Virus record (IMG/VR): IMGVR_UViG_3300018476_000015
Coordinates: 1 to 56,393 of that record
DNA length: 56,393 bases
Strand: one strand, 5' to 3'
DNA from: a virus
Lineage: Duplodnaviria; Caudoviricetes
The first letter of the stretch is position 1. Each line of letters opens with the position of its first letter. Shown here in pieces: positions 11,722 to 56,393 of the stretch. The position numbers were made by a program, and so were the translations under genes. A model generated the notes under the pieces. It had not been told where the DNA came from and searched no databases. It saw only the letters and a program-made list of their open reading frames with translations.

Positions 11722-11747
11722 AAGAGCCGGCCATGAAAATGGCCGGC
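11719..11747 (-). terminator. Intrinsic terminator-like hairpin, U-tract on minus strand
   Basis: GCCGGCCAT-N4-ATGGCCGGC (11726-11747), followed on the minus strand by TCTTTTA. Confidence 0.55.
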
Positions 11748-12048
11748 ACCCCGCCCGAGGTGCCGGCCTGGAGGGACGCCCCGCATCCGGCACGTCCGGG
11801 GGAGCGTCGCTCCGATCCTATCAATTCGGGCCCGCGCACAAAAGGTCTTCCTAGACCCTTCCCCCCAGGCCGGGCCGCCCGCTAGACTGAGGGCCCGTCG
11901 ACCACCGCCCGTCGCCGGCGTCTGGGGCGCCCACCCGGGCTGACCATGCCGCGCTGTGGGAGCGTGGTACGATCTGCAATAGCTGAATAGGTTGACGGGA
12001 CGACACCCCGTCCGGCTGTGGTAGGCCGTCGCCAACGTCCTCGGGCTG

Positions 12049-12149
12049 ACCCCTCATGGGGTCTAGGTGCCCGTTGGTTGTTTGGTCGTCCCTGTTGGCG
12101 GGGCTACCACCGACCAGCGGCCAACGGTCACCTAGACGACATGAGGGGT
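12049..12149 (+). promoter_or_regulatory. Long leader stem-loop sequestering the SD of the replication initiator
   Basis: ACCCCTCATG/CATGAGGGGT, GTCTAGGTG/CACCTAGAC, CCGTTGG/CCAACGG, TTGT/GCGG (G-U), TGGTCG/CGACCA. Confidence 0.7.
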
Positions 12150-12157
12150 TTTCCATT

Positions 12158-13144: not shown

Positions 13145-13508
13145 CCGCTTCGCCTTCCTGTCCGAGGGCGACCGGGAGATGCTCACCGACGACTGGTACG
13201 ACTGCTTCTCCCGGTACGACGGCGAGGCGTGGGTCCACGCCGTCGACGTGTGGAAGCGCTCGCACACGCAGTTCCCCACCCAGGCCGAGATGCACGGCCT
13301 GCTGCTCGACCTGATCCCGGCGATGGTCGCCAACCGGGAGGAGGCGGCGCGCCAGGAGCGGATGCGCCTGGCCAACCCACCCGACCTGGCCAAGACGGAG
13401 GAACTTCGGGAGCGCCTGCGCCGGCTCAAGCAGGCCATGCAGTTGAAGCCGCCGGCGCCGAGCGACGCCCCACCCCTGCTCCCGGAGCACACCGATGACG
13501 ACCGTTGA
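13068..13508 (+). CDS. Putative replicative helicase loader/inhibitor
   Basis: W…F..Y….W..AV..W……FPTQAEM pattern; between initiator and DnaB; SD GAGGAGG. Confidence 0.6.
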   Translation: MTEPKPPAMTVEEFTQPFQRLALAFNRFAFLSEGDREMLTDDWYDCFSRYDGEAWVHAVDVWKRSHTQFPTQAEMHGLLLDLIPAMVANREEAARQERMRLANPPDLAKTEELRERLRRLKQAMQLKPPAPSDAPPLLPEHTDDDR

Positions 13509-36766: not shown

Positions 36767-37759
36767 CTACTTGACGGCCTCGACACCCTGGACGCGGGCC
36801 AGGGAGCGGACGTGCCACGAGGCCAGGCCGGGAGACCAGTCGACGCGGGTGCGCATCACCGGCTCGGTCTGGAGTTCCCCGAGGTCTCTAACATCGAGGG
36901 CTTCCTTCTCCCAGCCGTGGAAGTGTGTCCGCACGCCCGTCTTGGCCCAGTACATGGAGGTGCAGTCGGTCTGCCCGCCGAAGGCCTCGGCGTCGGTGAT
37001 GATCGGCGTCACCTGGTCGGCCTTCACGCCCACGTCGTAGATGGGGCAGTCGCGGAACGTATAGACGATCCGCTCGTACTGGTCGCGGGTGATGGAGAAC
37101 AACTGCTCCCGGCGGAAGGCGCTCTCCAGGGCCAGCAGGGTGGTCTTGTTGCAGTAGCCGGCGTCGGGGCGCTTGCCGTCCAGGAAGTACATGGAGCGGT
37201 TGAAGCTGTCCAGCACGGCGTGGCGGTTGAGCGAGGTGGCGGTGGGCCCGAAGGGGGTGGCCACCCCGCCGGGGGCCAGGATGGCGTCGCCCAGCCCGGT
37301 GAGCGGATCGGCCACGTCGTTGATCCGGGTGCGGATGCCCGCCGGCGCGTTGGCCAGGGCCGTCCCGCCCGCCCCGATCCAGGGCCCGTTGATGGCCGCC
37401 TCGTTGAACTCATACGTGAGCGTCTTCAACTCGGTCTCGGTCATCAGGACACGAGGGTCCTCGAACTGGCCGTCGAGATTTTCCAGTCCTTTGGGGATGT
37501 CGATGTCCCTGCCCAACTTGAACACGGTCTCCTCGACCTGCTCAAGCTGGGCGGTCGACTTCCCGTAGGCTTCCCCGATGGCCACCCAGCCGGGTTTGGT
37601 CAGGGACGTGCGCACCTGGCGGGTCATGGAGATGCCCAGCCGGTTGACGGTGAAGAAGGGGATGCTGGCCATGATGTTGCTCTCCAGCCAGAACATCATG
37701 AGCACCCCCATCCGCAGGGGGTCCTTCTCGTTGAGCGCTGCTTGCGCGATTGTCCACAC
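36767..37759 (-). CDS. Major capsid protein (HK97 fold)
   Basis: 330 aa after scaffold; S.IM..IPF…R..L..PGW..IGE.Y…F….INGP…GI..R…TSMY…W..GLA..H.RSLARV.GV. Confidence 0.8.
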   Translation of the reverse strand: MWTIAQAALNEKDPLRMGVLMMFWLESNIMASIPFFTVNRLGISMTRQVRTSLTKPGWVAIGEAYGKSTAQLEQVEETVFKLGRDIDIPKGLENLDGQFEDPRVLMTETELKTLTYEFNEAAINGPWIGAGGTALANAPAGIRTRINDVADPLTGLGDAILAPGGVATPFGPTATSLNRHAVLDSFNRSMYFLDGKRPDAGYCNKTTLLALESAFRREQLFSITRDQYERIVYTFRDCPIYDVGVKADQVTPIITDAEAFGGQTDCTSMYWAKTGVRTHFHGWEKEALDVRDLGELQTEPVMRTRVDWSPGLASWHVRSLARVQGVEAVK

Positions 37760-41915: not shown

Positions 41916-44900
41916 TCACACCGTCCCCGGCGAGCCCGCAGCCCGCCCCGCGCTGGTGGGCACCACGCCCGTCTGTTGGAGCAACCGCTGCAGCGGGCTC
42001 ATCGCCTGGGGCATCGCCGGCCCCCCGTAGTAGCCGGTGGTCGGGCTGGCCACCCGGCTGCCCCCGCCGGTCGTGGCCGGCACGTTGCTCGCCCCGAAGC
42101 GGGGGGCGCCCGTCCCGGCGCTGGCCCCGGGCTGGTAGAGGGTGGACTGCCCGGCGACGCCGGAGGTCCCGGAGACGCCCGAGGTGGAGAAGGGGGCCGG
42201 GGTGGCGGCGTCCCACATGGGCGCCTGGGCCTGGCCGTTCTGGCTCTGCTGGGCGCCGTAGGCCCCGCCCCCGGCGCCCCCCGTCGCCGGCGAGGGCCCG
42301 GCGAAGCCCCCGGACATCCCGCCCCCGTTCCGGTCGCGGGCGGGGTCGGGCTGCTCCAGGGCCATCTGGGCCCCGTAGCCCACGTTGACCGACGCCGGCG
42401 GGGGGATGGTCCAGATGGAGCCCCCGCCCCCGCCGGTGCCGTGCTCCCAGCCGTAGGTGCCCATCGTCGGCGGGTCCTCGCCGTGGTAGCCGGCCCCGCC
42501 CCCGCCCAGGCCCTCGAAGGCCGAGCCGTCCGCCCGGTGCCAGGTCTCCACCGCCCCGTCGTCGTAGTGGGTCTGGAACCAGTCGCCGTCCAGGGGCATG
42601 ATGTGCTTGCCCTGGACGGGCAGGCGCCGGCGCTTCTTGGCGGCGGCGCTCTGGCTCTGGCCTTGCGCGCCCCCGCCACCGCCCCCGCCGCCGGTGGCGA
42701 TGTTGGGCGTGCTCTGGATGCCCCCCTGCTGGCCTTGACGCTGGCGCTTGGGGATGTAGTAGCCGGGGAAGTCCATCCCCCCGCCCACGAAGTAGCCGCC
42801 CTCGTCCTCCTCCTCTTCGGGGACGGGGGGCGACCAGGGCGGGGCCTCGCCGGGCGACCCGCCGGGCACCACGTTGCCGGTGTAGAAGTTGGCCGGCGCC
42901 GCCTGGTCGGGGGGTGGCCCGCCCTCGGGCAGCGGGATTTGCCACTCGTCGCTCGTCCCGTCCGAGTAGGTGGTACGGGCGTAGCCGGGCTTGCCCTCGC
43001 TCTCCAAGTCGACCGTGCTCACCTCGGTGCGAGGCTGGGTGGAGGGCTGCTGGGCGGTGTTGGGGGTGTTGTAGTCGGCCCCGGGCGCGGCGGTCGCCGG
43101 CGCCGCCGCCGGCGCAGCAGCAGCGGGGGCCGGTGACGCGCCGGCGGCCTTGGGCTTGAAGGGCGAGGTGAAGGGCTCCTGCTGCTGGGCCACCACGCCC
43201 TGGCGCTGCTTGTCGATGCCGGCCTGGCGGGCCTGCTGGGCGTCGTAGTTGGCCGCCACCGGCTCGAAGACGTTGGGGGCGATGTTCATCGAGGCGGCCG
43301 CCTTGCGGGGGTCGGTCACCTGGGACAGGCTGGCCAGCATCGCGGTCTGGAAGGGGGCGGTGGCCATCTGGTAGCCGGCCACCCCCTGGCGCGCCTCGCC
43401 CGCCTCGGCGGTGCGCCGGGTGCGCTCGCTGAAGCCCTCCTCCGCGAGGTTGTGGCGCCCGGCCTCAAGCTGCTGCTGGCGCTGGGTCTCGCTGTTCTGC
43501 AGGGCGGTGAAGTCCTGGACGTTCTTGGCCGCCTGCATGACCAGCCCGCGCACCTCGGACGGGGAGGCCCCCGAGTTGATGGCCTCCTCGATGCGCTGCC
43601 ACTCCTCGGCCTCCTTCTGCTCCTGGGCCAGCTTGAAGGCGTCGCTCTCGGCCTTGGTCCCGGCCTGGTCGCTCTCGGCCTTGGCGCGCTTGTCGTAGAC
43701 GGCCCGCTCCTCGGGGGTGAGCGTGTCCGTCATCGAGACCAGCTTGCCGTTCTGGTCGATGCGCACCGCCTGGCCCGTCGAGGAGACCGTGACGCTGTCC
43801 GTCAGGCGCTCATCGAACCCCGGGTTGGGGGTGGCGACGATGTCCCCCGTCACCCGGTCCTGGGTGACGATGTAGCGGTCCTTCGAGGTGGCCCGCACCT
43901 CCTGGGGGGTGTTCAGGAACGAGCGGTTGGGCTGCCAGACAATCGACCCGTCCGAGGGGTCGTAGATGAGCAACTCCGGGCCGTCCCCGCCGGAGAGCAC
44001 CACCGGGTTCCCGTCCTTGGGGATGGGAATCTGGTTGATGAGGTTGCCGGCGGGGTCGGTGACGTAGAGCCCGTCCGCCCCGGTGTGCACGCTGACGGTG
44101 GGGGGCTTGGGCCCGCCGATGGGCTTCCACTGCCCGTCCTTGGGGTCGAGGAAGACGGTCTGCCCGGTCTCCTGGTCGACCGCCGTCTGGACGTTGCCCT
44201 GCTGCCCCGGGGGCTTCTGCCCGGTGGCCTCGGCCACGTCCTTGAGGTTGCTCTGCTGGGCCTTGGCCAGGTCGGTGCGGGCCTTCGCCTGGGCCTCGAC
44301 AATCGCGTCGTAGTCCTTGCGCTCGGGGGAGCCGGGCTTCTCCATCCCCGCCACCAGGGCCTGCGCCGTCCGCAGCGCCGCCACCTCCGGGGTGTCCGGG
44401 TTGTCGTTGTCCACCGGGGGCACCACGTTGTTGGCCTGCTTGAGGAGCCACCTGGCGTTGTCCAGGGCCTCGGCGGCGTCGTACAGCTTGGCGTTGGCGA
44501 CGTTGGCCCGCTCCTTGGCCTCGGCCAGGATGGGGCTGTCGCCCGGATCGGGCTGGGCGTCCGGCACGCGCTGGCGCTTGGGCGGGCCGGTGGGCGCCGG
44601 CTCGGCGGTGGCCCCGGGCGTCCCGGGGGCGGTGGTCGCGGCGCCCCCGGGGTTGCGGGCCCGGATGGCGTCGATGCCGGCCTGGATGGTGGCGCCGGCC
44701 TTGCCCAGGAAGTCCCCGACGCCCTGCAGGGGTCCGGGCTTGGCCGCCCCCGAAGGCTGCCCCGCCTGGCGTACCGCGTTCCCGAGGGCCACGCCCTGCT
44801 GCGCCTCGTCGGTCAAAGCCATGTCCGTACTCCCTGCCTCCGGTGCCGCCGGTGCCGCCGGCGCTGCTGGTGCCGCCGGGCGGCGCGTTGAGGCCCCCTG

Positions 44901-46517
44901 CCCCATCGGGACGACGGTCGATCCGGTGCCGGTCGCCCCGGCGGCGGCGTCGATCCGCGCCTGCGTCTCTTCTACCAATTTCGGATCAAGCGCGAAGGAG
45001 TATCGCTCCCGCGCCGGCGCAGCGGGCGCCGCCGAGATGTTCTGCAGCCCCTGGGTCCCATCCGTCAGCACGTTGGCCCCGGAGGTGAGCAACTCCGTCC
45101 CCGGCATGGGCCCCGGCACCGGCTCGGGGGGTGGGCCCCCAATCTCGGGCATGGGCGCCGGCGGTGGCCCCCCGGCGGGCGTGGGGCTGGGCATCGGCGC
45201 CGGCGGGACGTTGGGCACCCGGGCGGTCTTCTTCCACGCCTCGTAGGCGGCCTGCGCCGGCGTCGCGGGCGGCGGGGTTGTGGGCCTCGCCTGCTGCGTG
45301 GCCGGCGCCGGCAGGGTCTGGTCGGGCTTGGGCAGGGTGGTGGCGGTGGCCCGCCCCGCCTGGCCCGGGGGCAGGCTCTGCCCCTCGGAGCCCACCGTCA
45401 CCCGCCCGGGCGTCCACTTGCCGGCCTTGACGATGTCGGTCAGCTTGCCGTTGGCGTCCCAGAACATGGCGTCGACGTGGGCCCCGGTGGCGTTCCCCGA
45501 GTCGCCCACCGCGCCGATGAGTTGCCCGCCGACCACCCGCTGCCCGGGGCGCACCTGGATGCTCCCGGCGGCCTGGTGGGAGTAGCGGGCCTTGGTGCCG
45601 TCCGCGTAGTTGACGATGACCGAGCCGCCCCAGCCCCCGTTCTCCTTGGGGTTGCGCCCGCCCCGCCGGCTGTCCCCCTGGGCCTGGTAGACCTCGGTCA
45701 CCACCCCGTCCATCTCGGCCACGATGGTGGCGCCATACGGTGCGGTCAGGTCGGCCCCGGTGTTGGAGGACGGCAGGGCCAGGCCCTCGGCCCCGGCCGA
45801 GCGGAACTGCTGGGCGCCGAAGGGGTTGTTGACCCCGCCGGGCCGGACGCCCACGATGGGCCAGAAGCGCTCGCCCGCCTGCTGGGGCGGGCCCCCGCCC
45901 CGGATGGCGCCGGCGCTGATGGTCGGCGCTCCCCGGGCCCGGGGCCCCTTGACCACGGTCACGCCGGCCTTCCCGCCCGTCATGGGGGTGTCGCGCCCGG
46001 CCTTGACCACCACCGAGCCGGGGGGCCGGGGCAGGGGCGCCCGGCTGGGGGGCAGCCCCACCTGGCGCACGCCCGCCGCCACGACCCCGCCTGGGGGCGC
46101 CGGCGGGGGCGTCCCGCCCTTGCCCACCCCGCCGGCGGCGGCGTCCAGGGCGGACATCCCCTGCTTCATCCGGCCCAGGTTGGCGTCGATGTTGCGGGCG
46201 TACTCCCCGGCCTTGAGGGGGCGCTGGGCGTAGGCGGCGATCTGGCCCGGGGTGGCCCCGGGGTGCTTGGCCAGCATCTGCCGGAACTCGGCCGCCGCCC
46301 GCCGGGCGGCGGCCTCGACGTTCTGCCGGGCGGCGATGGGCAGGCCGTGGCCCCGCCCGGCGTCGTGCTCCTGGAAGACGCCGTGGCTCTTGCCGTTGTC
46401 CCCCACCGCGTCGGGGCGCAGCCCGCTTTCTTGGACGGCGGTGGCCACCCCCAGGTCGGGGTCGAGCCCGGCCGCCAGCCAGACCCGGCGGATGACGCTC
46501 TCGACGCTCTCGGCCAC
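41916..46517 (-). CDS. Internal virion protein with lysozyme/SLT-like and degenerate M23 domains
   Basis: ATAVQESGLRPDAVGDNGKSHGVFQ; GADL.AP.GA.I.A..DG.V…G.G..V…YSH…V..GQRV..GQLIG.VGDSGNATGAH. Confidence 0.75.
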   Translation of the reverse strand: MAESVESVIRRVWLAAGLDPDLGVATAVQESGLRPDAVGDNGKSHGVFQEHDAGRGHGLPIAARQNVEAAARRAAAEFRQMLAKHPGATPGQIAAYAQRPLKAGEYARNIDANLGRMKQGMSALDAAAGGVGKGGTPPPAPPGGVVAAGVRQVGLPPSRAPLPRPPGSVVVKAGRDTPMTGGKAGVTVVKGPRARGAPTISAGAIRGGGPPQQAGERFWPIVGVRPGGVNNPFGAQQFRSAGAEGLALPSSNTGADLTAPYGATIVAEMDGVVTEVYQAQGDSRRGGRNPKENGGWGGSVIVNYADGTKARYSHQAAGSIQVRPGQRVVGGQLIGAVGDSGNATGAHVDAMFWDANGKLTDIVKAGKWTPGRVTVGSEGQSLPPGQAGRATATTLPKPDQTLPAPATQQARPTTPPPATPAQAAYEAWKKTARVPNVPPAPMPSPTPAGGPPPAPMPEIGGPPPEPVPGPMPGTELLTSGANVLTDGTQGLQNISAAPAAPARERYSFALDPKLVEETQARIDAAAGATGTGSTVVPMGQGASTRRPAAPAAPAAPAAPEAGSTDMALTDEAQQGVALGNAVRQAGQPSGAAKPGPLQGVGDFLGKAGATIQAGIDAIRARNPGGAATTAPGTPGATAEPAPTGPPKRQRVPDAQPDPGDSPILAEAKERANVANAKLYDAAEALDNARWLLKQANNVVPPVDNDNPDTPEVAALRTAQALVAGMEKPGSPERKDYDAIVEAQAKARTDLAKAQQSNLKDVAEATGQKPPGQQGNVQTAVDQETGQTVFLDPKDGQWKPIGGPKPPTVSVHTGADGLYVTDPAGNLINQIPIPKDGNPVVLSGGDGPELLIYDPSDGSIVWQPNRSFLNTPQEVRATSKDRYIVTQDRVTGDIVATPNPGFDERLTDSVTVSSTGQAVRIDQNGKLVSMTDTLTPEERAVYDKRAKAESDQAGTKAESDAFKLAQEQKEAEEWQRIEEAINSGASPSEVRGLVMQAAKNVQDFTALQNSETQRQQQLEAGRHNLAEEGFSERTRRTAEAGEARQGVAGYQMATAPFQTAMLASLSQVTDPRKAAASMNIAPNVFEPVAANYDAQQARQAGIDKQRQGVVAQQQEPFTSPFKPKAAGASPAPAAAAPAAAPATAAPGADYNTPNTAQQPSTQPRTEVSTVDLESEGKPGYARTTYSDGTSDEWQIPLPEGGPPPDQAAPANFYTGNVVPGGSPGEAPPWSPPVPEEEEDEGGYFVGGGMDFPGYYIPKRQRQGQQGGIQSTPNIATGGGGGGGGAQGQSQSAAAKKRRRLPVQGKHIMPLDGDWFQTHYDDGAVETWHRADGSAFEGLGGGGAGYHGEDPPTMGTYGWEHGTGGGGGSIWTIPPPASVNVGYGAQMALEQPDPARDRNGGGMSGGFAGPSPATGGAGGGAYGAQQSQNGQAQAPMWDAATPAPFSTSGVSGTSGVAGQSTLYQPGASAGTGAPRFGASNVPATTGGGSRVASPTTGYYGGPAMPQAMSPLQRLLQQTGVVPTSAGRAAGSPGTV

Positions 46518-49500
46518 CTACTTCACCCCCACCAGGCGCGCCGCCGCGCTGGCCTTGCCCCGCACGGCCTGCTTGCGCTCCTTCTCCTCCTGGATGCGCT
46601 TGTTGTAGTCCTCGTTCTTCTTGTACCCGGTGTACTGGTCGGCCAGGACGCGCTCCCGGTTGGTGGGCCGGTCGCCCGGGGGCACCGCCCGGCGCTCGTC
46701 CTTGGCCTCCTGCTCGGCCTTGACCTTGCGGTAGGCCTCCGCGATGGCGGTCTCCTGCTCCCCGCTCTTCCCGCCCACGTAGCGCCGGGGCGGTTTGGTC
46801 TGGGCGCCCATGTAGCCCTCGCGCCCCAGCAGGGGGTTCCAGAAGCGCTCCTGGCCCGACCCGGTGCGCTTGATGCGGTTGCCGTAGGCGGTGCGGGCCT
46901 CGGGCACCTGGCCGGACAGACCGGGGATGCCGGCCATCATCCGCTCGATGGGGTCGCGGGGCGAGCGCTCCTGGTCGGAGGTGGCCTGCTCCAACTCGCG
47001 CCAGATGCGCCCGCCGTAGAGCCCGGAGACGGCGCTCGTGCCCTGGCGCACCAGGGCCTCGGCCACCCCGTCGTCCTCGCCGGCGCCCACCGCCTGGCGC
47101 TTCCCGCTGGAGATGATGTCGGAGACGCCCTCGAAGAAAGGCCGGTTGATCGAGTACGAGGCGTTGGTGTTGATGAAGCGGGCCACCAGGCGCTGGTACT
47201 CGGCGGCGTCCCACTTGGTCCCGGCCAGGTCGTGCCGGCGCCAGAAGTCCCCGATGGTGGCGGCCTGGGTCAGCGACGAGTTGAGCCCCGGGAACATGGT
47301 CACCGGCTGCCACCGGGAGCCCACCCGCAGGCTGAAGGGCTGCTTGCCCTCGGCCCGCCAGCGCTTCAACTCCTCGGGGTCCTCCGGCTCCGGCCCGGTG
47401 ATGTTGCCCGAGGCGTAGGCGGCGAGGATGCCCAGGGAGATGAAGCTGCCCAGCGTCCCCCGGGCGTAGCGCTCGTACAGTTCGGTGCGGTTCTGCTTCT
47501 CCAGGTCGCCCGTCTTGGCGTCCTTGCCGTGCTGCAGGGCGGTGCGCACCAGCCCCACCGGGGAGCGCTCCAGGTCGTACTTCATCCCGTTGTAGGGGAT
47601 TTCCCAGAAGGGGATGACGAGTTTGCCCCCCGGCAACTCCCGGAAGCCGTTGACCGCCTTGCCGTAGCGGTCCATCTCCTGGGTCAGGCTGCGGTAGGCC
47701 TCGGTGTTCTTGACCGCCTCCTTGATTTGCGCATCGGTCAACGTGGCCTTGCCCTGCCTGGCGCGCAGGTCGTTGCGGGCCTGGAGGGCGGCCTCCTCGG
47801 CGGCGGCGGCGGCGTACTTGGTCGCCGCGTCGAAGATGCCCAGGACGCGGAAGCCCCCGTCCACGAAGCCCTGCACCCGCTTGTGGACGGGCCCGGTGGC
47901 GGCGAGGCGCTCCGCGTCCTTGCCGGTGGCGCCCCGCTGCAGGCGGGACTGCTCGGTCTCGTGCTCGGCGGACAGGCTCTTCTTGGCCTCGGCCCAGGCG
48001 GCGCCCTTGTTGTCCCAGTAGCTGCGCAGCATGGCCAGGCTCTCGCGGGCGCTGGGCACGTCCGCCCGGAGGTCCTGCCCGGCCTTGCGCTCCCCGATGT
48101 TGGCCAGCCCGCCGGCGAGGGCCCGCTCGGCCGGCTGCCACCCGATGGTGGCCACGTTGCCCACCAACTGCCGGCCCAGGCCCTTGACGGAGAGGAGCAT
48201 CCCCAGCTTCATGCCGGAGCCGGCCGTGGTGCCCCAGGTGGTCTGGCGGGGCTTCTCTACCTTGCCGGTGGTCTCCGGCCCCGGTTCCCCTGCATCGTCG
48301 CCCGGCGTATAGCTTCCCGGGGGTTGGGGGGTCGCGGTGGGGCTTCCCCCGCCGGGGAGGGCGCTGGGCCCTCCGGTGGGAGCGCCTCGTCCGGGCTGCC
48401 CGGGGCGGACGGGCCGGCCAGGTCCTCCGGGGCCGGGGGGAGGTCCGCCTGGTCCTCCGGGCCCAGCCCCGGCGCCGATGCCAGCACTCCGCTGGAGGGC
48501 GGCGAGGTGCTCGTCGCGCCGGGCTCGGGCTCCAACCCGCTCGGCGTCGCTGTCCCGGGTGTTGCCCCGTTCGCTGAGGGCCCGGGCCCCGAGGACTCCT
48601 GATCCGGGCTGTCCGGGTCGACCTCCTCGAAGGTCGGCAGGTTCTGCCCCGGCCACGTCCGCAGGGCCGCCTCGTACTCTTGCCTCGGGTCCAGCCCCGA
48701 GTCCCGCACCATCTCCAGGCTGAACCTGATTGCGTCCGGTGACGCCTCGTCGTGCACCGCCCGGAGCAACCCCGCGACCATCAGGTCCTGGTCCAGCTTG
48801 GCGTCCGAGCCCTCCGGCCCCGGCCCCCCGCCCGGCCCCGTCCCCAACTGCTGGGGCTCCGGCACCGGCTGCTCCGACTGCACCGGCTGCTCCGGGTTGG
48901 GCGGTGCGTCCGCGGACGATTCCGGTGGCGTTGGGGTCTCGGCCGACCATGGAGTCCCAGGAGAGGACGGGGTCGCGGACGTTGGGGGCGAAGAATCCGC
49001 CGTCGTAGATGGCCCCCGCCTCGGAGGCAAGTTGGTGGAGTAACTCATAGTCGTTGGCCTCCAGCAGGGTCATGACCTGGCGCGCCACCGCCCGCTGCTC
49101 GGTGATGGTGGCGTTGATGTTCAGGCGCAGGCGCTCTTTCCACGCCGGGTCGCTGTGGTCGTTGTGCTGTATCTCGTTGTGGGTCACCTCGTGGACGATG
49201 TCCTCGGCGGCCTGCGCCGCCATCTTCTGGGCCACCGCCGCCTTCCAGGAGGCCGAGGTGTACTCGGCCAGGGGACGGGGCCGGGGGATGGCCTCCTCGA
49301 TGACCCGACCGGCGCTGTCCAGGACGGCCGGGGTGCCGTTGTTCAGGCGCCAGACGGCGTTCATGAACCACATCTGCGGGTTGGTCAGCACCTGGCCCGG
49401 CTGGCCCCGGTCGCGCCCGATGTTGGGCGGGACGTTGATGGCCAGGTGCTCGGCGTTCAGGACGAAGCCGGCCGCCACGGCCCGCTCGTACTTGCGCGCG

Positions 49501-52500
49501 TCCAGGGTGCCCTGGCGCTGGGCCGAGGCGATGAGGGCCTGCTGCAGGGTGTTGAAGCCCGCCGTCCAGCCCTCGGCCAGGTCGGTGTGGTTCAGCCGGG
49601 CGGTGGTCGTCGGCAGCCCCCCGGCCTGGCCCAGCGTGACGCGCTGCGCCGCCCCGAACTGGCGTCGCCACCGGGGGTCGCGCGCGGCGGCCGACCCGGG
49701 CTTCGGCCTGGGCACCACCCACTTCGCCCGGCTCGTCCCGATGGGGTTGGCCTGGCTCAGTTGCTGGTTGAACCACCGCGTCTCGTCGTCCGCCGCCGGC
49801 CCCCCCTCTTCCTGGGCGGCCCCGCCCCGCACCATCTCCGGGGTGATTAGCTGCGGGGTGGCTCTCCCGCCTGGCCCTCCCGGGACGGGGGAGGTGAGGA
49901 CCCCGCCGTCGAGCCCGAGGGCGGCGTCGGCTCGCCCGACCCGGCCGTCCGGGTGGGGGCCAGCGCCCGGGTGCGCACGCGCTGCCGGAGCCGGTTGCCC
50001 ACGGTCGCCAGGGGCGCCGAGCCCGCCGGGCGCTGCTGTTCCGCTTCCCGCGCCGCGAACTCCCGCACCTCGTCCTCCGTCTCCGGCCAGCCCGGCGTCC
50101 CCGGGTAGCCCATCGCCCTGGAGGTCTGGTTCAGTTGGTAGCGCCGCAGCCACCCCTCCAGGCCCTGGGGCTGCGCGAACCGGCGCTGCACCCAGGCCCG
50201 GAACTGCTCCTCGGTCTCCACCGGCTCCGGGCTCGGTTTCTGCCGATACTCGGTTGCCGGCGATCCCGGCTCCGGGCTCAGCGCCGGCGCCGGCTCCGGG
50301 CTCGGCGCCGGCGGTTGCCCCCTCGGCGCCCTCGGCGGGGTCGCGGAGGGCGGCCTCGCGGACGGCGTCGAGTTGGTCCTGGTAGGTCCAGTCCTCGGCC
50401 CCCCACCTCGTCTGGTCGACATCGGGCGCGTCCTTCGTCCGCAGGTTGAAGATCGACTGCTGGCGGAACCGTTCCGCCAGGCGCATGGCCGTCTCCCGGT
50501 CGGCCACCGGGATGGACAGGTCGAGGTTGATGGCCTTGCTGTTCGGGTCCAGCTTGCCGTCCTTGGTGCGCTGCATCCCGGCCCACGTCCCGATGGCCAG
50601 GAAGGGGAAGTTGTTGAACGGGTCGCGGCTCTCGGCGTGGAACTGGGCCAGCCGGAAGCCGGCGCCCTTGGCGTTGAACTCGTGGGTCTCGTTGATGTCC
50701 TGGCTGTAGTCGGGGAAGACGGCCACCATCCACACGTCCTCGCCCCGGGCCAGGCGGTCCTTGACCACCTGGGGCATCTTCCCCGGCCAGTAGGTGGAGC
50801 CCCGGTAGGGCAGGGGCTCCCGGTTGTGCATCTCGGCCTGCTCGCCGTAGGCCTCGGCCTTCTCCGGCCACAGGCCCTGCATGGGGTCGTCCAGGGCCTC
50901 GGCCGGCTGGAAGGGGGCGTTCGCGTTGAACTCCGCGACGCCCCGGCCCCCGGGCTCGCCCAGGTGCAGGGCCTCCCGCTGGGCCATGGTGGTGCGCACC
51001 GTGCCCTCGATCAACTCCTGGACCTTGCCGGTGTCCTTGTTGACCCGGATCAGGCCCTTGCCCACCGTGCCGACCACGTTGCCCGCCTCGTCCCGGATGT
51101 CCAGGGCGAAGCCGGCGTCCTGGTCCTTCGACCAGGGGGTGCCCGTCGTGGGGCCCTGGCCCTTGAGTTGGTCGGCCAGCTTCCAGCCCCAGCGCCGGCC
51201 GATCTGGTCCTCGGTGAAGATGCGGAAGGGCACCTGGCGCCGGCCGTACTTCTCCCGGGCGGCGCCGACCTTCTCCGGCACCTTCCAGGGGTCCAACTCC
51301 CAGGCGGCGGCGTGCTTGACCTCCAGCACCTCCTGCTTCCCGCTCGTGTAGGTGACCAGGAAGTCGGGGGCGAAGATGCCCTCCTGCCCGGCGTCGGTGA
51401 TCCCGCCCGGGCGGGTGATGGGGTGGAAGCGCCGCTCCGGCTTGATCTGGAAGCGCACCCGCCCCCGCTGGGACAGGCTCTTCGTCCAGGTCGCCACGTT
51501 GGGGTCGCTGTCCAGGCGGATGGCCAGCAGCAACTCGTACAGGCTGTCGAAGTGCTGCTTGACCCCCGTCTTCTTGGAGGTGTAGGCGATGCCCTTGAGC
51601 GGGTCGTCGGTCTCCGACTTGATGGCCCCCCGCTCCTGGCCGGAGCGCTTGAGTTGCTCGCCCCGGGGCTGGGGGCCCTCGGCCAGCACGTTGAGCGCGG
51701 CGTCGAGCACCTTCTGGGGGATGCCGGCGGCAATCGAGGCGTCCTTGGACGACTTCTGCTCCAGGTCGTAGATGCGCAGGCCCTCGATGACGGCGTCGGG
51801 GGTGGCCTCCCCGAAGTCGAAGCCCCCGGCGGCGTGGGCGTCCTGCAGGGCCCGCTTGGCCTGGGCCCGCTGCTGCCGGGTGGCCATGGCCAGGAGGCTG
51901 CCCTCGGCCTGGGCGGCGCCGCGCTTGGTCGCCGCCTCGGCCTTGCGGGCGTCGCGCTGGGCGAACTGGGCCCGCAGCTTCTCCGCGGCCGCCGGCGTCT
52001 TGGCCTTGTCGATCCGGGCCTGGTCGGCGGCGCGCTGCTTCTCCGTCCGGCCCCGCTCCCGGGCCGCCTCGCGGTCGCGCTTGACCTGCTCGCGCGCGGC
52101 CACCTCGGGGGCCCGGCGCTCGGCGCTGGCCCGGGCCTTCTCCTCCGAGGCCAGGCGCTTGGCCGCCAGGTTGGCCTGGGCCACCCCAGGCGCCGCCCGC
52201 TCCAGGCGCTCGCGGTAGGGGTAGTCCGGCAGGGGCGACACGTCCAGCCGGCCCTCCGGCTCGGGGGACGTGGAGGGCTCGCGCTCCCAGCGGTAGCGGG
52301 CGTCCCCCGGCTCGACCGGGGTGTCTGGCCCGAACAGGTCGTCCAGCCGGCCCCGGCTGGCCGCCTGCCAGTAGACGAAGTCGGTGCCGGTCAGCAGCGT
52401 CCCCGGCTCGGGGGGCAGGATGACCACCTCGTCGCCCTCGGAGACGCCCAACTCCGCGGCCATCTGGGCGTCGGCGGTCATGGTGGGCCAGCCCGCCTCG

Positions 52501-55500
52501 GGGGTGGGGAAGGCCGGAGCCCGGCCCGGCTTACCCAGCCCGGCGAAGCGCCCCACCCCGGGGATGGTGCCGTCGTCCGTCCAGTCCGGGCCCACCGGGG
52601 CGTTGCCGTACTCGCCCGGCTGGGCCTTATAGACGCCCGAGGTCTTGGGGCGCCAGCCCTCCTTGAAGGGGTAGAGCGGGGTGACCCCGTCCGCCCGGGT
52701 GGTCTTGCCCCCCTCGCCCCGCAGCTTCTGCCTGATCTGCATCCGGCCCTGGGCGTCGGGCCCCACCGCGGTGAAGCCGGCCTCGCCGGCCAGTTCGGCG
52801 TCCCGGCCCATCCCGCCGGCGACGGCCTCGTCCCCCGCGTCCTCGTCGCCGGCGTCCTCCTCGGCCTCGGGCTCGGCCTCTTCGTCTACCTCAACCTCGG
52901 CCTCGTCCTCGGTGGCGGTCTCCGGGTCCTCGTTGTCGAGGTCGTCGTCCTCCTCGTCCAGGTCCTCTTCGGTCTCGGTCTCCGGGCCCTCTTCCCCGGT
53001 CTCCGGGACCACCCGGGAGCCGGCCACCTCGGCACCGGCCGGGCCACCCACCTGGTCGGGCAGGCGCCCCTCGTCCCAGGCGTCGAGGTCGTCCGGGGCG
53101 TCCGGGGGCGCCTCCTCGCCGGCCTGCTCGTAGTCCTGGCGGGTGCGCTCCGGCTGCCCCGCCTGGGCGGTTCCGGTTTCGGGCGCCACCTTGTGGTAGA
53201 GCGCGAAGCCCTCCTGCACCCGCTTGCGCAGGGCGTCGTTGATGGGCAGCACCCACACGTCGAGGTCGGCGTCCTCGCTCGGGTCGTGGTCGTCGGGCGG
53301 GCGCAGGGTGGTGCGCTCCACCGCGACGCCGGCGGGCTTGCCCAGCTTGTTGGCGATGCCCACCATGATCTGGTCGTACTGGCGGGCCATCGTGCGGCCC
53401 TTGCTGTCCGCGACCAGGATGTCCTCGCCGTCGATCAGGGCGGTGCCGTCCGGGCCCACGTTGGCCGGGTCGGTGAGGTAGGCCGTCGCCGTATCCCCCA
53501 CGTACTGGGGCAGTTGCTCGGGCGGGACGTGGTAGGTGCGCTCGTGGTCGCCCCCGTTCTCGGCCCGGGGCACGACCCGCAGGGTCTGGGTGGCCGGCTC
53601 GTAGGCGGCGCGCTGCACGATCCGCCCCGCGCTCCAGCGCCGGGCGATGACCTGCCCCGTCGACCAGGAGATGGCCTCGGCGCCCCGGTCGACCGCGTCG
53701 CGTAGCTGGCGCTCCAGCAGCTTCTCGGTGATGGTGTTGTCCGGGAAGGGGGCCCGGGGGTAGCCCTCCGGGCTGACCGTGGCCGCGTCGTCCAGGTGGC
53801 GCTGGGCGCCCTCGACCCCGTCGCGCATCTCGTAGGCGGCCTCGTGGGCGTCCTGGAAGGCGCGGTCGCTGTCCGGGGTGTCCTCGTCGTGGCTGGCCGC
53901 CTCGGCCTCCTGCTCGAAGGCGTGCTGGCGCTGCTCGAAGGCGTCGCGCAGGACCCGGTTGTAGGCGATCCAGGCGCCCTGGTCGCCCCCGCCGGCGTAG
54001 CGCTCGTAGAGGTCGGAGGTCAGCAGGTTCCGGTCGCGCACGGCCTCGCCGTAGGCCCGCGCCTCGGGGGGCAGGCCCTCGGGGAAGGGCGCGTCCCGGC
54101 GGGCCAGGGCGCTCTGGTAGGCCCCGTTCTCGGCCCGCTCCTGGTCGATGTTCTGGCCGTTCTCCCGGATGCGCTTCTCGATGCGGCGCACGCTGTCGGC
54201 GCCGTGGATGGTGCCGTAGGCCCACTCCTCGGCGGTGGCCTTGCTCCGGCGCAGGGTGGTGCGCTGCAGCCCGGTGTCGGGGGCGGCGGCCATGGTGCGC
54301 ATGGCGTTCTGCATCGCCGCCCGGGCGCGCAGTTCGGTCTCCACCGCCTGCACCAGGTACTCGGCGTCGGCCCGGGTGGCGGCCGGGATGGGCTGGTCCC
54401 AGGCCCGCTCCATGGCCACCCGGTCCCAGGTGCCCTGCTTGCGCCCGCGCTGGTGGATGTCGGTCTGGGACTCGTTGTTCTGGACGGTGGTGCGCCCGTC
54501 CGCCAGCACGTCGTCGTGGGTGCGGTTGGCGCCCACGATGCCGGGCCGGCCCCCGTAGTGGGAGCCCACGCTGAACTCGCCCACGTCCAGCTTCTGCTCG
54601 TCCAGGGCGGTGCGGTCGTAGGCCGGGGTGGTGCCCCGGTCGGCGCCCACCCGCAGCAGGGTCTCGCGGGGATTGGCCTCCTGCTCGGCCCCCCGGCGCA
54701 GGGTGTAGTTGTACTCGCCCGGGCGGCTGTACTGGGCGTGCTCCGGCTTGCCGGCCGGCTTGGGGGTGAAGGGGTTGACCTCGCCCCCGGCCAACTCGGC
54801 CGCCGCGTAGACCCGCCTTCGGATGGGACGCACCGCCTCGGACAGTTGCCGGCGGGCCTCGTTCATGGCCTCGGGCCCGGCGCCCCGCCCGCCCACCAGC
54901 ATCGAGGTGTTGACCACGTAGTCGTCCAACTCGCGCAACCAGGCGGCGGCCATCCGGCCCGGCTCGCTCTCCAGCAGGGCGTCGGGCAGGTCCTCGCCGG
55001 TCAGCGGGTCGGTCGGCGGGGGCGCGGAGAGGCGCTTGTAGATGCCCTCGCGGAAGGCCTGGTCCTCCGCGGTGCGGGGCGCGCCCACCAGGCGGTTCAG
55101 CACCGCCTCGCTGTTGGCCCGCAGGTTGGACTGCACCTCGGCCTTGGCCGCCTCCTGCTGGGCCCGGAAGAGCAGGTCGGCCACCGCCCGCTTCCGCTGG
55201 GCCTCGGCCTCGGGGCCCGTCTCGGCCCCGGTGCGGTCGTAGCCCAGCACGCTCTCCACCAGGGGCAGGCGGTTCTGCTGGACGTGCTGCAGCAGTTGCT
55301 GGCGGTCGACCGGGGTGCCCGCCTGCTCGGCCCGGTCGAGCAGGGCGTCCGTCCCCGTCCAGTAGAGTTCCTCCTTCTTGACCCCGTTGCCCAGCAGCAA
55401 CTGGCGTAGCTGGGCGGCGGGCATCCGGCCCTGGCGGAACTTGGCCTCGATGACCCGCTCTAGCTGGGAGTACCAGACCCCGGCGCGCTCGCCGGCGGGG

Positions 55501-56393
55501 GCCCGCCCGCCCAACTCGGAGCGCACCATGGTGGGCTCGGGCACGTCGGTGCGGGGCTGCGCCGGGACGGGCTCGCCCGGGCGGTGGGGCTCGGGCCGGG
55601 CCGCCGCCTCCTCCCCGCCGGAGAGGAAGGCCAGGCGCCGGCGCAGGGCGTCGTACTGGGCGCCGGTGACCGTCTGGGCCAGGCGGGGCAGGTTGGCGTT
55701 GGCGTCGCGCAGGGTCTCCGTGGCCCCCACCGAGGCGGCCTGCTCGTAGGTGTCCAGGAGGTGCTCGTAGATGCGGTTCTGCTGCGGGGTGCCGGCGCTG
55801 CGCAGGGCCTCGTCCGGCTCGGTGAGCATGGGCGACTCGCCGGCCTCGCCGGGGCGCACCGTGATGGCGGTGGGCTCGGGCTGCCCGCCCAGCGCCGCCC
55901 GCCGGCGGGACAGGTAGCCCCGCAGGTCGAGGGCCTGCTGGGGGGAGAGTTGGCCGGCGTTGTCCATGTCCGTGACCATCTGGCCCCGCGACTCCAGGTC
56001 GCCCGGGCTCATGGCGTCGGTGATCTGGCGGTGCAGGGAGCGGTAGAGCCCCAACTGCTGGGGGGTGCTCTCCGGCTCGCCGGGCCGGCCCCGGAAGCGG
56101 GGCGCCTCGGTGCCGGTCGCGGCGTCGAGCACCCGAGGGGCGTTGGGCGGCCCCGCCTCGGGCTGGGCGGTGTGGGCGGCGATGGGGGCCGCCTCCTCCG
56201 CTCGGCGCTGCTGGGGCACCTCGATGACCCGCCCGTCCGGCGTCTCCACCCGGCGCATCGTCTCCGCAGCGGGCGCCTGGGTTTGGGCTTGCTGGGCCTG
56301 CGCCGCCGGCGCGGCGACGCGCAGGTCGCGCACGGCCTGGTCGGAGGCCTGCGCCGCCGGGTCGGTGCGCGGGTCGCGCCCGGCCTCGCGGGC
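46518..56393 (-). CDS. Giant polyvalent virion protein (>3290 aa, 5' end outside window)
   Basis: Frame open to window end; contains WYSQLE…GVKKEEL, QTDIHQ…APF…ISWSTG…YDQ, TnsA-like nuclease, HEVTH zincin motif, C-terminal PF..IPYN helical domain. Confidence 0.85.
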   Translation of the reverse strand, partial: AREAGRDPRTDPAAQASDQAVRDLRVAAPAAQAQQAQTQAPAAETMRRVETPDGRVIEVPQQRRAEEAAPIAAHTAQPEAGPPNAPRVLDAATGTEAPRFRGRPGEPESTPQQLGLYRSLHRQITDAMSPGDLESRGQMVTDMDNAGQLSPQQALDLRGYLSRRRAALGGQPEPTAITVRPGEAGESPMLTEPDEALRSAGTPQQNRIYEHLLDTYEQAASVGATETLRDANANLPRLAQTVTGAQYDALRRRLAFLSGGEEAAARPEPHRPGEPVPAQPRTDVPEPTMVRSELGGRAPAGERAGVWYSQLERVIEAKFRQGRMPAAQLRQLLLGNGVKKEELYWTGTDALLDRAEQAGTPVDRQQLLQHVQQNRLPLVESVLGYDRTGAETGPEAEAQRKRAVADLLFRAQQEAAKAEVQSNLRANSEAVLNRLVGAPRTAEDQAFREGIYKRLSAPPPTDPLTGEDLPDALLESEPGRMAAAWLRELDDYVVNTSMLVGGRGAGPEAMNEARRQLSEAVRPIRRRVYAAAELAGGEVNPFTPKPAGKPEHAQYSRPGEYNYTLRRGAEQEANPRETLLRVGADRGTTPAYDRTALDEQKLDVGEFSVGSHYGGRPGIVGANRTHDDVLADGRTTVQNNESQTDIHQRGRKQGTWDRVAMERAWDQPIPAATRADAEYLVQAVETELRARAAMQNAMRTMAAAPDTGLQRTTLRRSKATAEEWAYGTIHGADSVRRIEKRIRENGQNIDQERAENGAYQSALARRDAPFPEGLPPEARAYGEAVRDRNLLTSDLYERYAGGGDQGAWIAYNRVLRDAFEQRQHAFEQEAEAASHDEDTPDSDRAFQDAHEAAYEMRDGVEGAQRHLDDAATVSPEGYPRAPFPDNTITEKLLERQLRDAVDRGAEAISWSTGQVIARRWSAGRIVQRAAYEPATQTLRVVPRAENGGDHERTYHVPPEQLPQYVGDTATAYLTDPANVGPDGTALIDGEDILVADSKGRTMARQYDQIMVGIANKLGKPAGVAVERTTLRPPDDHDPSEDADLDVWVLPINDALRKRVQEGFALYHKVAPETGTAQAGQPERTRQDYEQAGEEAPPDAPDDLDAWDEGRLPDQVGGPAGAEVAGSRVVPETGEEGPETETEEDLDEEDDDLDNEDPETATEDEAEVEVDEEAEPEAEEDAGDEDAGDEAVAGGMGRDAELAGEAGFTAVGPDAQGRMQIRQKLRGEGGKTTRADGVTPLYPFKEGWRPKTSGVYKAQPGEYGNAPVGPDWTDDGTIPGVGRFAGLGKPGRAPAFPTPEAGWPTMTADAQMAAELGVSEGDEVVILPPEPGTLLTGTDFVYWQAASRGRLDDLFGPDTPVEPGDARYRWEREPSTSPEPEGRLDVSPLPDYPYRERLERAAPGVAQANLAAKRLASEEKARASAERRAPEVAAREQVKRDREAARERGRTEKQRAADQARIDKAKTPAAAEKLRAQFAQRDARKAEAATKRGAAQAEGSLLAMATRQQRAQAKRALQDAHAAGGFDFGEATPDAVIEGLRIYDLEQKSSKDASIAAGIPQKVLDAALNVLAEGPQPRGEQLKRSGQERGAIKSETDDPLKGIAYTSKKTGVKQHFDSLYELLLAIRLDSDPNVATWTKSLSQRGRVRFQIKPERRFHPITRPGGITDAGQEGIFAPDFLVTYTSGKQEVLEVKHAAAWELDPWKVPEKVGAAREKYGRRQVPFRIFTEDQIGRRWGWKLADQLKGQGPTTGTPWSKDQDAGFALDIRDEAGNVVGTVGKGLIRVNKDTGKVQELIEGTVRTTMAQREALHLGEPGGRGVAEFNANAPFQPAEALDDPMQGLWPEKAEAYGEQAEMHNREPLPYRGSTYWPGKMPQVVKDRLARGEDVWMVAVFPDYSQDINETHEFNAKGAGFRLAQFHAESRDPFNNFPFLAIGTWAGMQRTKDGKLDPNSKAINLDLSIPVADRETAMRLAERFRQQSIFNLRTKDAPDVDQTRWGAEDWTYQDQLDAVREAALRDPAEGAEGATAGAEPGAGAGAEPGAGIAGNRVSAETEPGAGGDRGAVPGLGAAPVRAAPGPGGVAAALPTEPDLQGDGLPGDAGLAGDGGRGAGVRGAGSGTAAPGGLGAPGDRGQPAPAARAHPGAGPHPDGRVGRADAALGLDGGVLTSPVPGGPGGRATPQLITPEMVRGGAAQEEGGPAADDETRWFNQQLSQANPIGTSRAKWVVPRPKPGSAAARDPRWRRQFGAAQRVTLGQAGGLPTTTARLNHTDLAEGWTAGFNTLQQALIASAQRQGTLDARKYERAVAAGFVLNAEHLAINVPPNIGRDRGQPGQVLTNPQMWFMNAVWRLNNGTPAVLDSAGRVIEEAIPRPRPLAEYTSASWKAAVAQKMAAQAAEDIVHEVTHNEIQHNDHSDPAWKERLRLNINATITEQRAVARQVMTLLEANDYELLHQLASEAGAIYDGGFFAPNVRDPVLSWDSMVGRDPNATGIVRGRTAQPGAAGAVGAAGAGAPAVGDGAGRGAGAGGLGRQAGPGPDGRGVAPGGARRGVTGRNQVQPGDGAGLGAGPEARVRGGPADVAGAEPADLRGGRPGQPGSGVLGARALSERGNTRDSDAERVGARARRDEHLAALQRSAGIGAGAGPGGPGGPPPGPGGPGRPVRPGQPGRGAPTGGPSALPGGGSPTATPQPPGSYTPGDDAGEPGPETTGKVEKPRQTTWGTTAGSGMKLGMLLSVKGLGRQLVGNVATIGWQPAERALAGGLANIGERKAGQDLRADVPSARESLAMLRSYWDNKGAAWAEAKKSLSAEHETEQSRLQRGATGKDAERLAATGPVHKRVQGFVDGGFRVLGIFDAATKYAAAAAEEAALQARNDLRARQGKATLTDAQIKEAVKNTEAYRSLTQEMDRYGKAVNGFRELPGGKLVIPFWEIPYNGMKYDLERSPVGLVRTALQHGKDAKTGDLEKQNRTELYERYARGTLGSFISLGILAAYASGNITGPEPEDPEELKRWRAEGKQPFSLRVGSRWQPVTMFPGLNSSLTQAATIGDFWRRHDLAGTKWDAAEYQRLVARFINTNASYSINRPFFEGVSDIISSGKRQAVGAGEDDGVAEALVRQGTSAVSGLYGGRIWRELEQATSDQERSPRDPIERMMAGIPGLSGQVPEARTAYGNRIKRTGSGQERFWNPLLGREGYMGAQTKPPRRYVGGKSGEQETAIAEAYRKVKAEQEAKDERRAVPPGDRPTNRERVLADQYTGYKKNEDYNKRIQEEKERKQAVRGKASAAARLVGVK
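48257..49048 (-). CDS. Nested +1-frame gene A inside the giant gene
   Basis: GGAGG-N9-ATG; GC3 bias switches to this frame over KLDQDLMVAGLLRAVHDEASPDAIRFSLEMVRDSGLDPRQEYEAALRTWPGQNLPTFEEVD. Confidence 0.7.
   Translation of the reverse strand: MSYSTNLPPRRGPSTTADSSPPTSATPSSPGTPWSAETPTPPESSADAPPNPEQPVQSEQPVPEPQQLGTGPGGGPGPEGSDAKLDQDLMVAGLLRAVHDEASPDAIRFSLEMVRDSGLDPRQEYEAALRTWPGQNLPTFEEVDPDSPDQESSGPGPSANGATPGTATPSGLEPEPGATSTSPPSSGVLASAPGLGPEDQADLPPAPEDLAGPSAPGSPDEALPPEGPAPSPAGEAPPRPPNPREAIRRATMQGNRGRRPPAR
49847..50422 (-). CDS. Nested +1-frame gene B inside the giant gene
   Basis: AAGGA-N8-ATG; GC3 bias switches to this frame over ETEEQFRAWVQRRFAQPQGLEGWLRRYQLNQTSRAMGYPGTPGWPETEDEVREFA. Confidence 0.65.
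   Translation of the reverse strand: MSTRRGGGPRTGPTRTNSTPSARPPSATPPRAPRGQPPAPSPEPAPALSPEPGSPATEYRQKPSPEPVETEEQFRAWVQRRFAQPQGLEGWLRRYQLNQTSRAMGYPGTPGWPETEDEVREFAAREAEQQRPAGSAPLATVGNRLRQRVRTRALAPTRTAGSGEPTPPSGSTAGSSPPPSREGQAGEPPRS

Follow-up and report, generated by a model that had tools for sequence, protein, structure and literature searches.

How can one uninterrupted open reading frame (ORF) of more than three thousand codons carry, in two of its stretches, the coding signature of a different frame? The question is raised by the IMG/VR virus record IMGVR_UViG_3300018476_000015, a linear stretch of 56,393 bp from a high-GC soil phage known from metagenomes (estimated to be 49% complete) that was analysed in full and is called here the window. 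Its GC content is 69-75% throughout and 72-75% in the region of the giant ORF, which occupies positions 46518..56393 of the minus strand. A first-pass annotation of this DNA had described the ORF as uninterrupted over more than 3290 codons, and this was confirmed: it has 3291 open codons with a sole stop at its end, the 5' end being cut by the end of the contig. The answer that we consider probable is that the giant ORF is translated as a single gene, whose product is an internal virion protein of the polyvalent type, that two genuine and separately initiated genes, which we call B and D, are nested within it, and that the giant frame reads the stop-poor shadow of these genes as linkers rich in glycine, alanine, arginine and proline (G/A/R/P) on both sides of a domain with an HExxH motif. 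The anatomy of this arrangement, its reproducibility, its conservation in a second lineage (and in a third for the end of D) and the selection that keeps the nested starts can all be shown directly.

Long ORFs in alternative frames are trivial in this DNA because its GC content is high; 36 ORFs of at least 100 amino acids (aa) overlap 44000..56393, four of which exceed 1000 aa in other frames. A frame plot is more telling. The GC content at third codon positions (GC3) of the giant frame lies between 0.91 and 1.00 in all windows of 300 nucleotides (nt), the normal signature being ~0.98, except in two stretches, where it drops to 0.58-0.76 (windows 50393-49794) and to 0.46-0.76 (windows 49043-48294). 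The +1 frame has the normal coding pattern in both of these stretches, with GC at the three codon positions of ~0.77/0.46/0.96, and the coding signature thus moves to the +1 frame in exactly two segments of the giant ORF. The switch points, as placed by a cumulative plot at ~50300, 49900, 48920 and 48380, delimit linker 1 (49900..50300, minus strand) and linker 2 (48380..48920, minus strand), in each of which the signature belongs to the nested frame and the giant frame forms a G/A/R/P spacer. These four residues make up 70% of the giant-frame linkers as compared to 39% of the remaining protein, and the +1 translations of both stretches are rich in P, S, T and E and have W, F, Y, M and L enriched in their central segments. 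There are 32 stops among the 3292 codons of the +1 frame and none in 51013-49849 or 49072-48259. Relative synonymous codon usage in the two stretches correlates better with the rest of the gene when they are read in the nested frame (rho 0.79 vs 0.53 for the giant frame), and the same holds in the related DNA described below as L002 (0.64 vs 0.53). Since the third position of the nested codons is almost always G or C and is at the same time the first position of the giant-frame codons, stops are rare in the giant frame. The linkers also contain tandem repeats with periods of 6, 9, 18, 24 and 30 nt and a weak two-copy row of period 17. Repeats stand at the starts of both nested-coded segments (50266..50313, period 24/18 nt; 48856..48895, 18/9 nt) and read as PEP- and EQPV-type repeats in the nested frame.

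The frame switches are reproduced outside the IMG/VR record. In the independent Logan assembly of the run that is probably the source, 46000-49010 shows 0 differences and 49126-56388 shows 1, neither with a gap, and contigs from three further soil runs, which belong to two other studies, are exact over all four switch points. The exact matches are 50264-50435, 49727-49955 and 48257-48420 in run X2, 48818-48968 in run X3 and 48863-49015 in run X4. Length varies in these contigs only by deletions of 9 nt (X2) and 3 nt (a minor contig of X1), both of them multiples of three; they fall at the tandem repeats that open the nested-coded segments.

Each switched segment lies within an ORF of the +1 frame that begins inside the giant-frame domain before it. 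Nested gene B (49847..50422, minus strand, 191 aa) overlaps the end of the preceding giant-frame domain with its first ~35 codons and has a Shine-Dalgarno (SD)-like GAAGGA at 50431..50436 on the minus strand, 8 nt before its ATG. Nested gene D (48257..49048, minus strand, 263 aa) overlaps with its first ~45 codons the end of the HExxH domain (48924..49847, minus strand; HEVTH at 49193..49179), and its ATG is preceded at a distance of 9 nt by an SD-like GGAGG at 49058..49062 on the minus strand. The first-pass annotation had proposed that the two linkers are the shadows of SD-preceded ORFs at 50422..49847 and 49048..48257, and this has stood, the arrangement being found again in a second lineage and the 3' end of D in a third. 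Its statement that each nested ORF starts right at the end of a domain holds more loosely: the starts are near such ends, with the ATGs ~100-125 nt before the switch, inside the last part of the domain before them. Only seven ATGs occur among the 3292 codons of the nested frame, and among the 51 ATGs on this strand of the giant ORF an SD match of at least 4 nt precedes nine and one of at least 5 nt precedes that at 49048 alone.

Relatives were sought through the C-terminal domain of the giant protein (46521..48260, minus strand), called E, which belongs to an internal-virion-protein family; HMMER with this domain (580 aa) matched 3141 proteins at E<=0.001. One of them, P0004, is the window's own E domain called as a separate protein of 564 aa from an ATG at 48212, and some of the other proteins that consist of E only (P0006, P0010 and others) may likewise be giants split by gene callers. 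P0005, 51% identical, reads in a single frame through a G/A/R/P linker, a HELTH domain, a second G/A/R/P linker and E, and P0008 (3273 aa) and P0009 (2832 aa) are giants with a C-terminal E. Among the 130 E matches with at least 100 aa upstream, these three are the only ones with an upstream segment rich in G/A/R/P (at least 0.65), and all three have HExxH, which is therefore kept in 4/4 lineages seen (the window, L002/P0005, P0008 and P0009).

The DNA that encodes P0005, L002, provides the most informative comparison. The same phage is present in L003 and L005, which are identical to it over an 860-nt stretch of linker 2, and in L004 (99.2%). Its giant ORF runs for 3810 uninterrupted codons (1991..13423), within which the complete gene occupies 2000..13423 on the plus strand and encodes 3807 aa from a GTG start with AGGAGG upstream; judged by this length, the window's copy probably lacks ~500 N-terminal codons on account of the contig end. 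The gene caller used for L002 began the giant frame at a GTG within linker 1 (P0005), swallowing the small genes. Between the window and L002 amino-acid identity is 68% in the domain before B, 44% in the HExxH domain and 49% in E. The same two frame switches occur in L002 at homologous places, with open +1 ORFs of 173 and 246 codons whose translations align with B and D, and the nested frames stay open with GC3 of 0.85-0.94. Among lineages with DNA, B follows the A-end domain in 2/2 and D the HExxH domain in 2/2, while a further relative, L006, is cut inside D, with D preceding E.

As far as sequences can tell, the conserved starts and SD-like sites are the strongest evidence for separate initiation. 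All four starts (B and D, window and L002) have SD-like purine runs 7-9 nt upstream despite differing giant-frame residues. For B, the corresponding site of L002 is GAGGAG, with a spacing of 7 nt to the ATG (giant-frame residues TKD vs VEE), and in both phages no other start codon lies between the upstream stop and this ATG. A T-ending giant-frame codon creates it, in GAT GTC in the window and AAT GTC in L002, and in each case the codon used is rare (GAT is 3/190 of the Asp codons in the window, AAT 4/100 of the Asn codons in L002). For D, L002 has AGGAG 7 nt before a TTG, again with other giant-frame residues (LEA vs LQE), and the start is the first start codon after the upstream stop, at the same aligned place in the two phages. 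The giant frame here reads TAT GAG TTA CTC CAC CAA CTT in the window and TTT GAG CTA CTC GAC CAA CTT in L002, with four rare codons ending in A or T at identical positions. In the window these are TAT (2/72), TTA (1/205), CTT (1/205) and CAA (12/169), and in L002 they are TTT (2/76), CTA (6/242), CTT (7/242) and CAA (13/221); codons ending in A or T amount to 2.1% and 4.0% of the giant codons of the window and L002, respectively. In the nested frame the rare codons encode M/L-SYSTNL, and the difference between TTA and CTA is silent in both frames. A cluster of at least four A/T-ending codons within seven is found nowhere else among the window's 2911 giant codons; L002 has two further clusters of this kind besides the homologous one. 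That the starts and the nested N-terminal residues are held against a GC3 bias of 98% is what independent initiation predicts; neither a frameshift site nor a relic in decay would depend on kept starts or SD-like sites.

Conservation extends into the bodies of the nested genes. In the core of B (49967..50209, minus strand; EQF.AW...MGYPGTPG...AAREAEQ.RPAGSAPL) the window and L002 are 65% identical in the nested frame (47/72, ungapped), as compared to 49% when the same bases are read in the giant frame. The core of D (48608..48853, minus strand; DQ.LM.AGL.RAVHD.ASP..IR..L..VRDSGL.P..EYE.AL...LPTFEEVDPDS) is 67% identical by MAFFT, and an ungapped block of 68 codons within it gives 63% in the nested frame vs 58% in the giant frame. 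Identity between the two phages is 63-67% in the nested cores, as compared to 44-49% in the neighbouring HExxH and E domains. In the D core L004 and L002 differ by four single nucleotides, at nested codon positions 3, 3, 3 and 1 and in every case at position 1 or 2 of a giant-frame codon. Three parts of D are conserved, namely a dual-coded N-terminus, a helical-looking core of ~65 residues and a basic C-terminal motif, PR.A[IL]RRA..[QE]GNRGR (48275..48322, minus strand), just upstream of E; among 11,139 six-frame fragments (1.14 million residues) no ORF contained this motif other than the D ORFs of the window, L002-L005 and L006. The last of these is a 3-kb contig of 74% GC in which an ORF is open from the contig start into an E domain 29% identical to that of the window. 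The codon-position GC of its first ~400 nt, 0.93/0.76/0.63, marks a shadow frame. The +1 frame there ends ...PRDALRRASEQGNRGRP, carrying the motif unique to D ORFs; it reads ...DAGVDPEAL...LPDYATV... and finishes ...PPSPRDALRRASEQGNRGRP, followed by a stop. The candidate link between this ORF and D rests on motif and synteny.

Searches beyond these phages returned little. A six-frame search of the other 49 loci of the E family yielded no D-like ORF, and L030 and L066 (GC 0.66-0.68) show no frame switch in the E-bearing ORF, the GC3 screen being uninformative in loci of lower GC content. Blastn of 47800-50800 against phage and plasmid collections gave no match, scans with the HExxH and C-terminal domains found no relatives in viral or metagenome contigs, and scans of viral contigs with the B and D cores returned the L002 contig again and nothing else; P0008 and P0009 were not found in viral contigs. 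A search of genome contigs gave one distant relative in a Dehalococcoidia metagenome-assembled genome, without a D-like ORF. By word index, no long protein with the HExxH domain was found, and D retrieved only the window's own protein at near lengths and nothing at 462-2000 aa.

Several of our results weigh against B and D being separately initiated genes with functions of their own. Lineages for which DNA is at hand comprise two full ones (the window and L002) plus one 3-kb fragment, L006, whose D gives E = 0.1 against the window's D by phmmer after bias correction. D starts with ATG in the window, and the first start in L002 is TTG, not ATG. In P0009, known as a protein only, a D-like core follows the HExxH domain in the same frame (blastp, E 1e-3 among 150 proteins, with 32% identity over 69 aa; hhalign, E 3.8e-4, probability 36%), so that D may act as a cis domain in some phages, or the P0009 contig may carry indels. 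The advantage of the nested frame in identity is real but modest for both B (65% vs 49%) and D (63% vs 58%). The ratio pN/pS of nonsynonymous to synonymous differences is 0.76-0.78 in the nested cores and 1.13-1.35 in the giant frame there, values that lie within the 0.45-1.66 spanned by undoubted domains, and at the divergence between the window and L002 it does not discriminate between the frames. When the nested proteins were recoded with the gene's own codon usage and the giant frame was checked for stops, it stayed open by chance with P of 0.78 and 0.65 for the window, and of 0.67 and 0.42 for L002 (~0.14 for all together); the openness of the giant frame by itself is not demonstrably a sign of selection for fusion. 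Neither B nor D has a Pfam or PHROG family or a named relative, which leaves the functional part of the reading to inference, and among the sequencing runs listed as holding the stretch none is an RNA run. We counted in favour of the reading that gene callers applied to other assemblies called D and the E domain as genes, D from a GTG at 48883 (P0154, 208 aa; also an ESM Atlas record) and E from the ATG at 48212. With the call in L002 that starts within linker 1, the annotation of such genes is inconsistent. P0009 has two other stretches of note. A later stretch rich in G, A and P (..GGQPGAP..) looks like the shadow of the C-terminal motif of D, to judge from the giant-frame translations of L002 and L006. 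About 400 residues at ~1000-1400 are rich in R, P, G and H, as is typical of out-of-frame reading; this stretch could represent a further nested gene or indel errors. We give P0009 little weight, since in a protein sequence a real frame toggle looks the same as indels.

The mechanism that we envisage for the two nested genes is as follows. B and D would be translated by internal initiation, each from a ribosome-binding site and start codon of its own that lie in the closing 35-45 codons of the giant-frame domain before it. For the ~400-540 nt that follow, selection on amino acids would act on the nested frame, while the giant frame is only kept open and yields G/A/R/P-rich spacers, free of constraint, to either side of the HExxH domain. 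Neither in the window nor in L002 is there a giant-frame stop at the ends of the pre-B and HExxH domains, and the three giant-frame parts are in phase; ribosomes must therefore read on. The weakest step would be the last, an action of B and D, inside the producing cell, on the giant protein made from the same messenger RNA (mRNA), in its assembly, its packaging or the control of the HExxH peptidase.

A role of B and D in assembly, packaging or regulation towards the co-encoded giant protein is our guess. The two proteins show no similarity to each other, and neither has a paralogue in the window. The ESM Atlas gave no usable feature matches for either and for D only weak structural neighbours, small and helical, that fell under the bar. 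The idea put forward in the first-pass annotation, that the gene for each was acquired as a unit with its upstream domain and that, as immunity proteins or inhibitors, they would keep putatively toxic nuclease-like and HExxH domains in check inside the producing cell while staying unpackaged, takes its appeal from the position of each nested gene, which starts where an enzymatic-looking domain ends and shares its transcript, and from the proposal that the zincin-like peptidases of polyvalent proteins process the polypeptide (PMC5512222, in the part drawn on here), since such an activity would need control before delivery. We nevertheless find it an unlikely account: neither B nor D could be tied to a family, fold or named relative, co-occurrence can be counted in two lineages only, and the best-conserved part of D is its C-terminal motif, which adjoins the E domain and not the HExxH domain. 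A predicted complex of the HExxH domain with the D core scored a median of 0.77, but one control with chain 1 replaced reached 0.58, and the prediction is evidence neither way. A broader version, to which we would still give only a small chance, is that in this clade of high-GC phages a packaged polyvalent effector owes its linkers to the shadow frame of small conserved genes, whose products act on the neighbouring domains in the producing cell, for instance by holding the HExxH peptidase or nuclease-like domain inactive or by serving as chaperones while the giant protein enters the capsid, and themselves stay behind.

A different account of the same frames is programmed +1 frameshifting, in which some ribosomes would slip at the domain ends to make truncated isoforms with B or D tails, and no separate small proteins would be made. 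The nested frame is indeed +1 and each nested ORF stops shortly before the next domain; the in-frame core of P0009 indicates that D can belong to a long polypeptide, and the rare codons at the D start could serve as a pause site. However, these same rare codons keep start codons that frameshifting does not need, any more than it needs the SD-like sites 7-9 nt upstream of them in both lineages, and through them nested residues that precede any possible shift site (SYSTNLPPRRG) are conserved. The codon after the sole plausible slip site (CTT G) is the common GCC. No conserved slippery heptamer (X_XXY_YYZ) occurs near the ORF ends, which is no full test as +1 sites are without a general consensus, and there was no Rfam match at E<=0.1 in 46000-56393. 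On this balance we regard frameshifting as improbable.

Relics of a former reading frame would also leave a coding signature out of frame. On this account the nested stretches are untranslated remains of P/S/T/E-rich linkers with small helical modules that were once in frame and were shifted by compensating indels. Linkers elsewhere in the giant protein that are in frame are P/E-rich, like the nested translations, the D-like core of P0009 is in frame, and homopolymer runs (G5, C5-C6) lie near the switch points. Gene families remodelled out of frame have, moreover, been described in E. coli (PMC8788219, in the portion consulted). Such relics would nonetheless have had to predate the split of lineages whose flanking domains are 44-49% identical (29% in L006), and over that time the nested frames have stayed open with their high GC3, the cores and the C-terminal motif have been kept, and starts and SD-like sites have been maintained against the prevailing GC3 bias. 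Two simultaneous indels 400-600 nt apart in an essential gene would be needed, twice over, and we think this account very improbable. That indel errors in GC-rich repeats merely mimic a frame switch, an artefact of assembly or sequencing suggested by the homopolymers and short tandem repeats near the switches, has next to no likelihood, since an independent assembly of the source run and exact contigs from three more runs reproduce the four switch points and two other lineages share the structure, so that the frame switch is no assembly error and the artefact is refuted as far as contigs can show.

If B and D are genes in their own right, there remains the order in which the two frames arose. 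In overlapping genes the frame with codon usage nearer to that of the genome is taken as the older one (Pavesi et al. 2013, PMC3744397, in the part relied on here). By this rule codon usage suggests that the small genes are the older frame and that the giant-frame linkers overprint them, which points to gene fusion across intervening genes. The giant gene would have originated when once-separate genes were fused by reading through the shadow frame of small genes that lay between them, a step that high GC content makes easy. The age order fits such a fusion at least as well as it fits the acquisition of effector-antidote cassettes. Zincin-like peptidase is the commonest domain of polyvalent proteins and has been proposed to process them (Iyer et al. 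2017, PMC5512222, as far as the source was covered), and unconstrained spacers around the HExxH domain would fit such processing.

The domain content and the gene neighbourhood of the giant ORF agree with its assignment to the polyvalent type, in that unrelated effector-type domains (TnsA-like N-terminal, HExxH and internal-virion-protein) stand in one polypeptide among virion genes. The TnsA-like endonuclease N-terminal domain (51210..51392, minus strand; residues 1668-1728) matches Pfam PF08722 (E 2.3e-07, 31.7 bits, cut-off 26.5), and Pfam recognised no other family in the giant protein. A TnsA-like and SAM-lyase-like block had been placed just before B; the TnsA-like match exists, ~260 residues upstream of the B start, and family searches gave no support for a SAM-lyase-like domain. 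The label "zincin" likewise goes no further than the HExxH motif, by which alone the domain is zincin-like, as it has no Pfam family at E<=1 and no meaningful match by sequence in the Protein Data Bank (PDB). PHROG 6651, "internal virion protein", matches residues 2871-3049. The giant ORF heads a structural module and is followed by genes for a 1533-aa protein, two family-less proteins, the major head protein (36767..37759, same strand; phrog_212, E 6e-30) and a tail-fibre-like protein. The gene for the 1533-aa protein (41916..46520, minus strand) has a GTG start at 46517, directly after the TAG stop of the giant ORF (46520..46518). Metallo-endopeptidase/endolysin-type PHROG matches at residues 237-358 indicate that this is probably a second large virion-associated lytic protein. 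A P/A-rich linker in the same gene (~44700-45140, minus strand) has a modest GC3 dip to 0.83; a nested gene at 44700..45140 was considered and rejected, because the other frames there contain stops. Elsewhere in the window, AT skew changes sign near 24 kb (positive before, negative after) and GC skew changes too, which fits the meeting of two gene blocks on opposite strands at ~24000.

Nested and overlapping genes have long been known in phages. In lambda Rz/Rz1, a small gene for a lipoprotein of ~60 aa lies wholly inside a larger one, in the +1 frame and with its own start. B and D resemble Rz1 in lying wholly inside a larger gene on the same strand, in the +1 frame, with their own starts and on one mRNA. 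They differ in size (191 and 263 aa) and in that no signal peptide or lipobox is evident by reading alone, there are two of them in one giant virion gene, and the larger frame, functional in Rz, is an unconstrained spacer here over most of the overlap. In phiX174, B is overprinted in A and E in D, and the present genes are like these in that two frames of one DNA are both read. Polymorphic toxins have a variable enzymatic domain followed, after a stop, by a small cognate immunity gene; the succession of variable enzymatic domain and small gene recurs here, but B and D lie inside the ORF rather than after a stop, and they are known from sequence alone. Programmed frameshifting produces isoforms of phage structural proteins, as in lambda G/GT and T7 10A/10B, which the giant gene recalls in having an alternative frame near a domain end and a second product from one structural gene, and from which it departs in the conserved start and SD-like site of each nested gene and in the lack of a recognisable slip site. 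In overprinting as usually described, a new small gene arises in an old large one, whereas here, on the codon-usage rule in the part of its source relied on, the small genes would be older and the giant linkers newer. As far as the main text of the paper on polyvalent proteins goes (PMC5512222), the giant protein is like these in being a giant multidomain phage protein with an HExxH domain between others, a nuclease-type domain and a virion module; that main text contains the words "frameshift" and "overlapping" 0 times, and membership of the HExxH domain in the zincin-like clades of Iyer et al., in the part of that work covered, is unsupported by sequence searches of Pfam or PDB. A full-text literature search, which did not extend to supplements, found no paper on genes nested in the linkers of polyvalent or internal virion proteins.

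To our knowledge, long same-strand nested genes are rare in tailed phages, and in those that we know of it is the large gene that is the constrained frame. The constraint appears to be reversed here, with genes of 190-260 codons lying in a gene of >3290 codons that is unconstrained over most of the overlap. This suggests a route by which giant multidomain proteins may arise in high-GC genomes, namely by reading across the shadow frame of intervening genes while those genes stay functional. Giant virion proteins and nested genes in other high-GC phages are probably mis-annotated, as gene callers either split the ORF or swallow the small genes. If it is true that B and D control or chaperone the neighbouring domains, they would represent a novel means of packaging an effector along with its keeper, as effector-antidote or effector-chaperone modules nested in a single ORF, and high GC content would let phages build polyvalent proteins without losing the genes that are read through.

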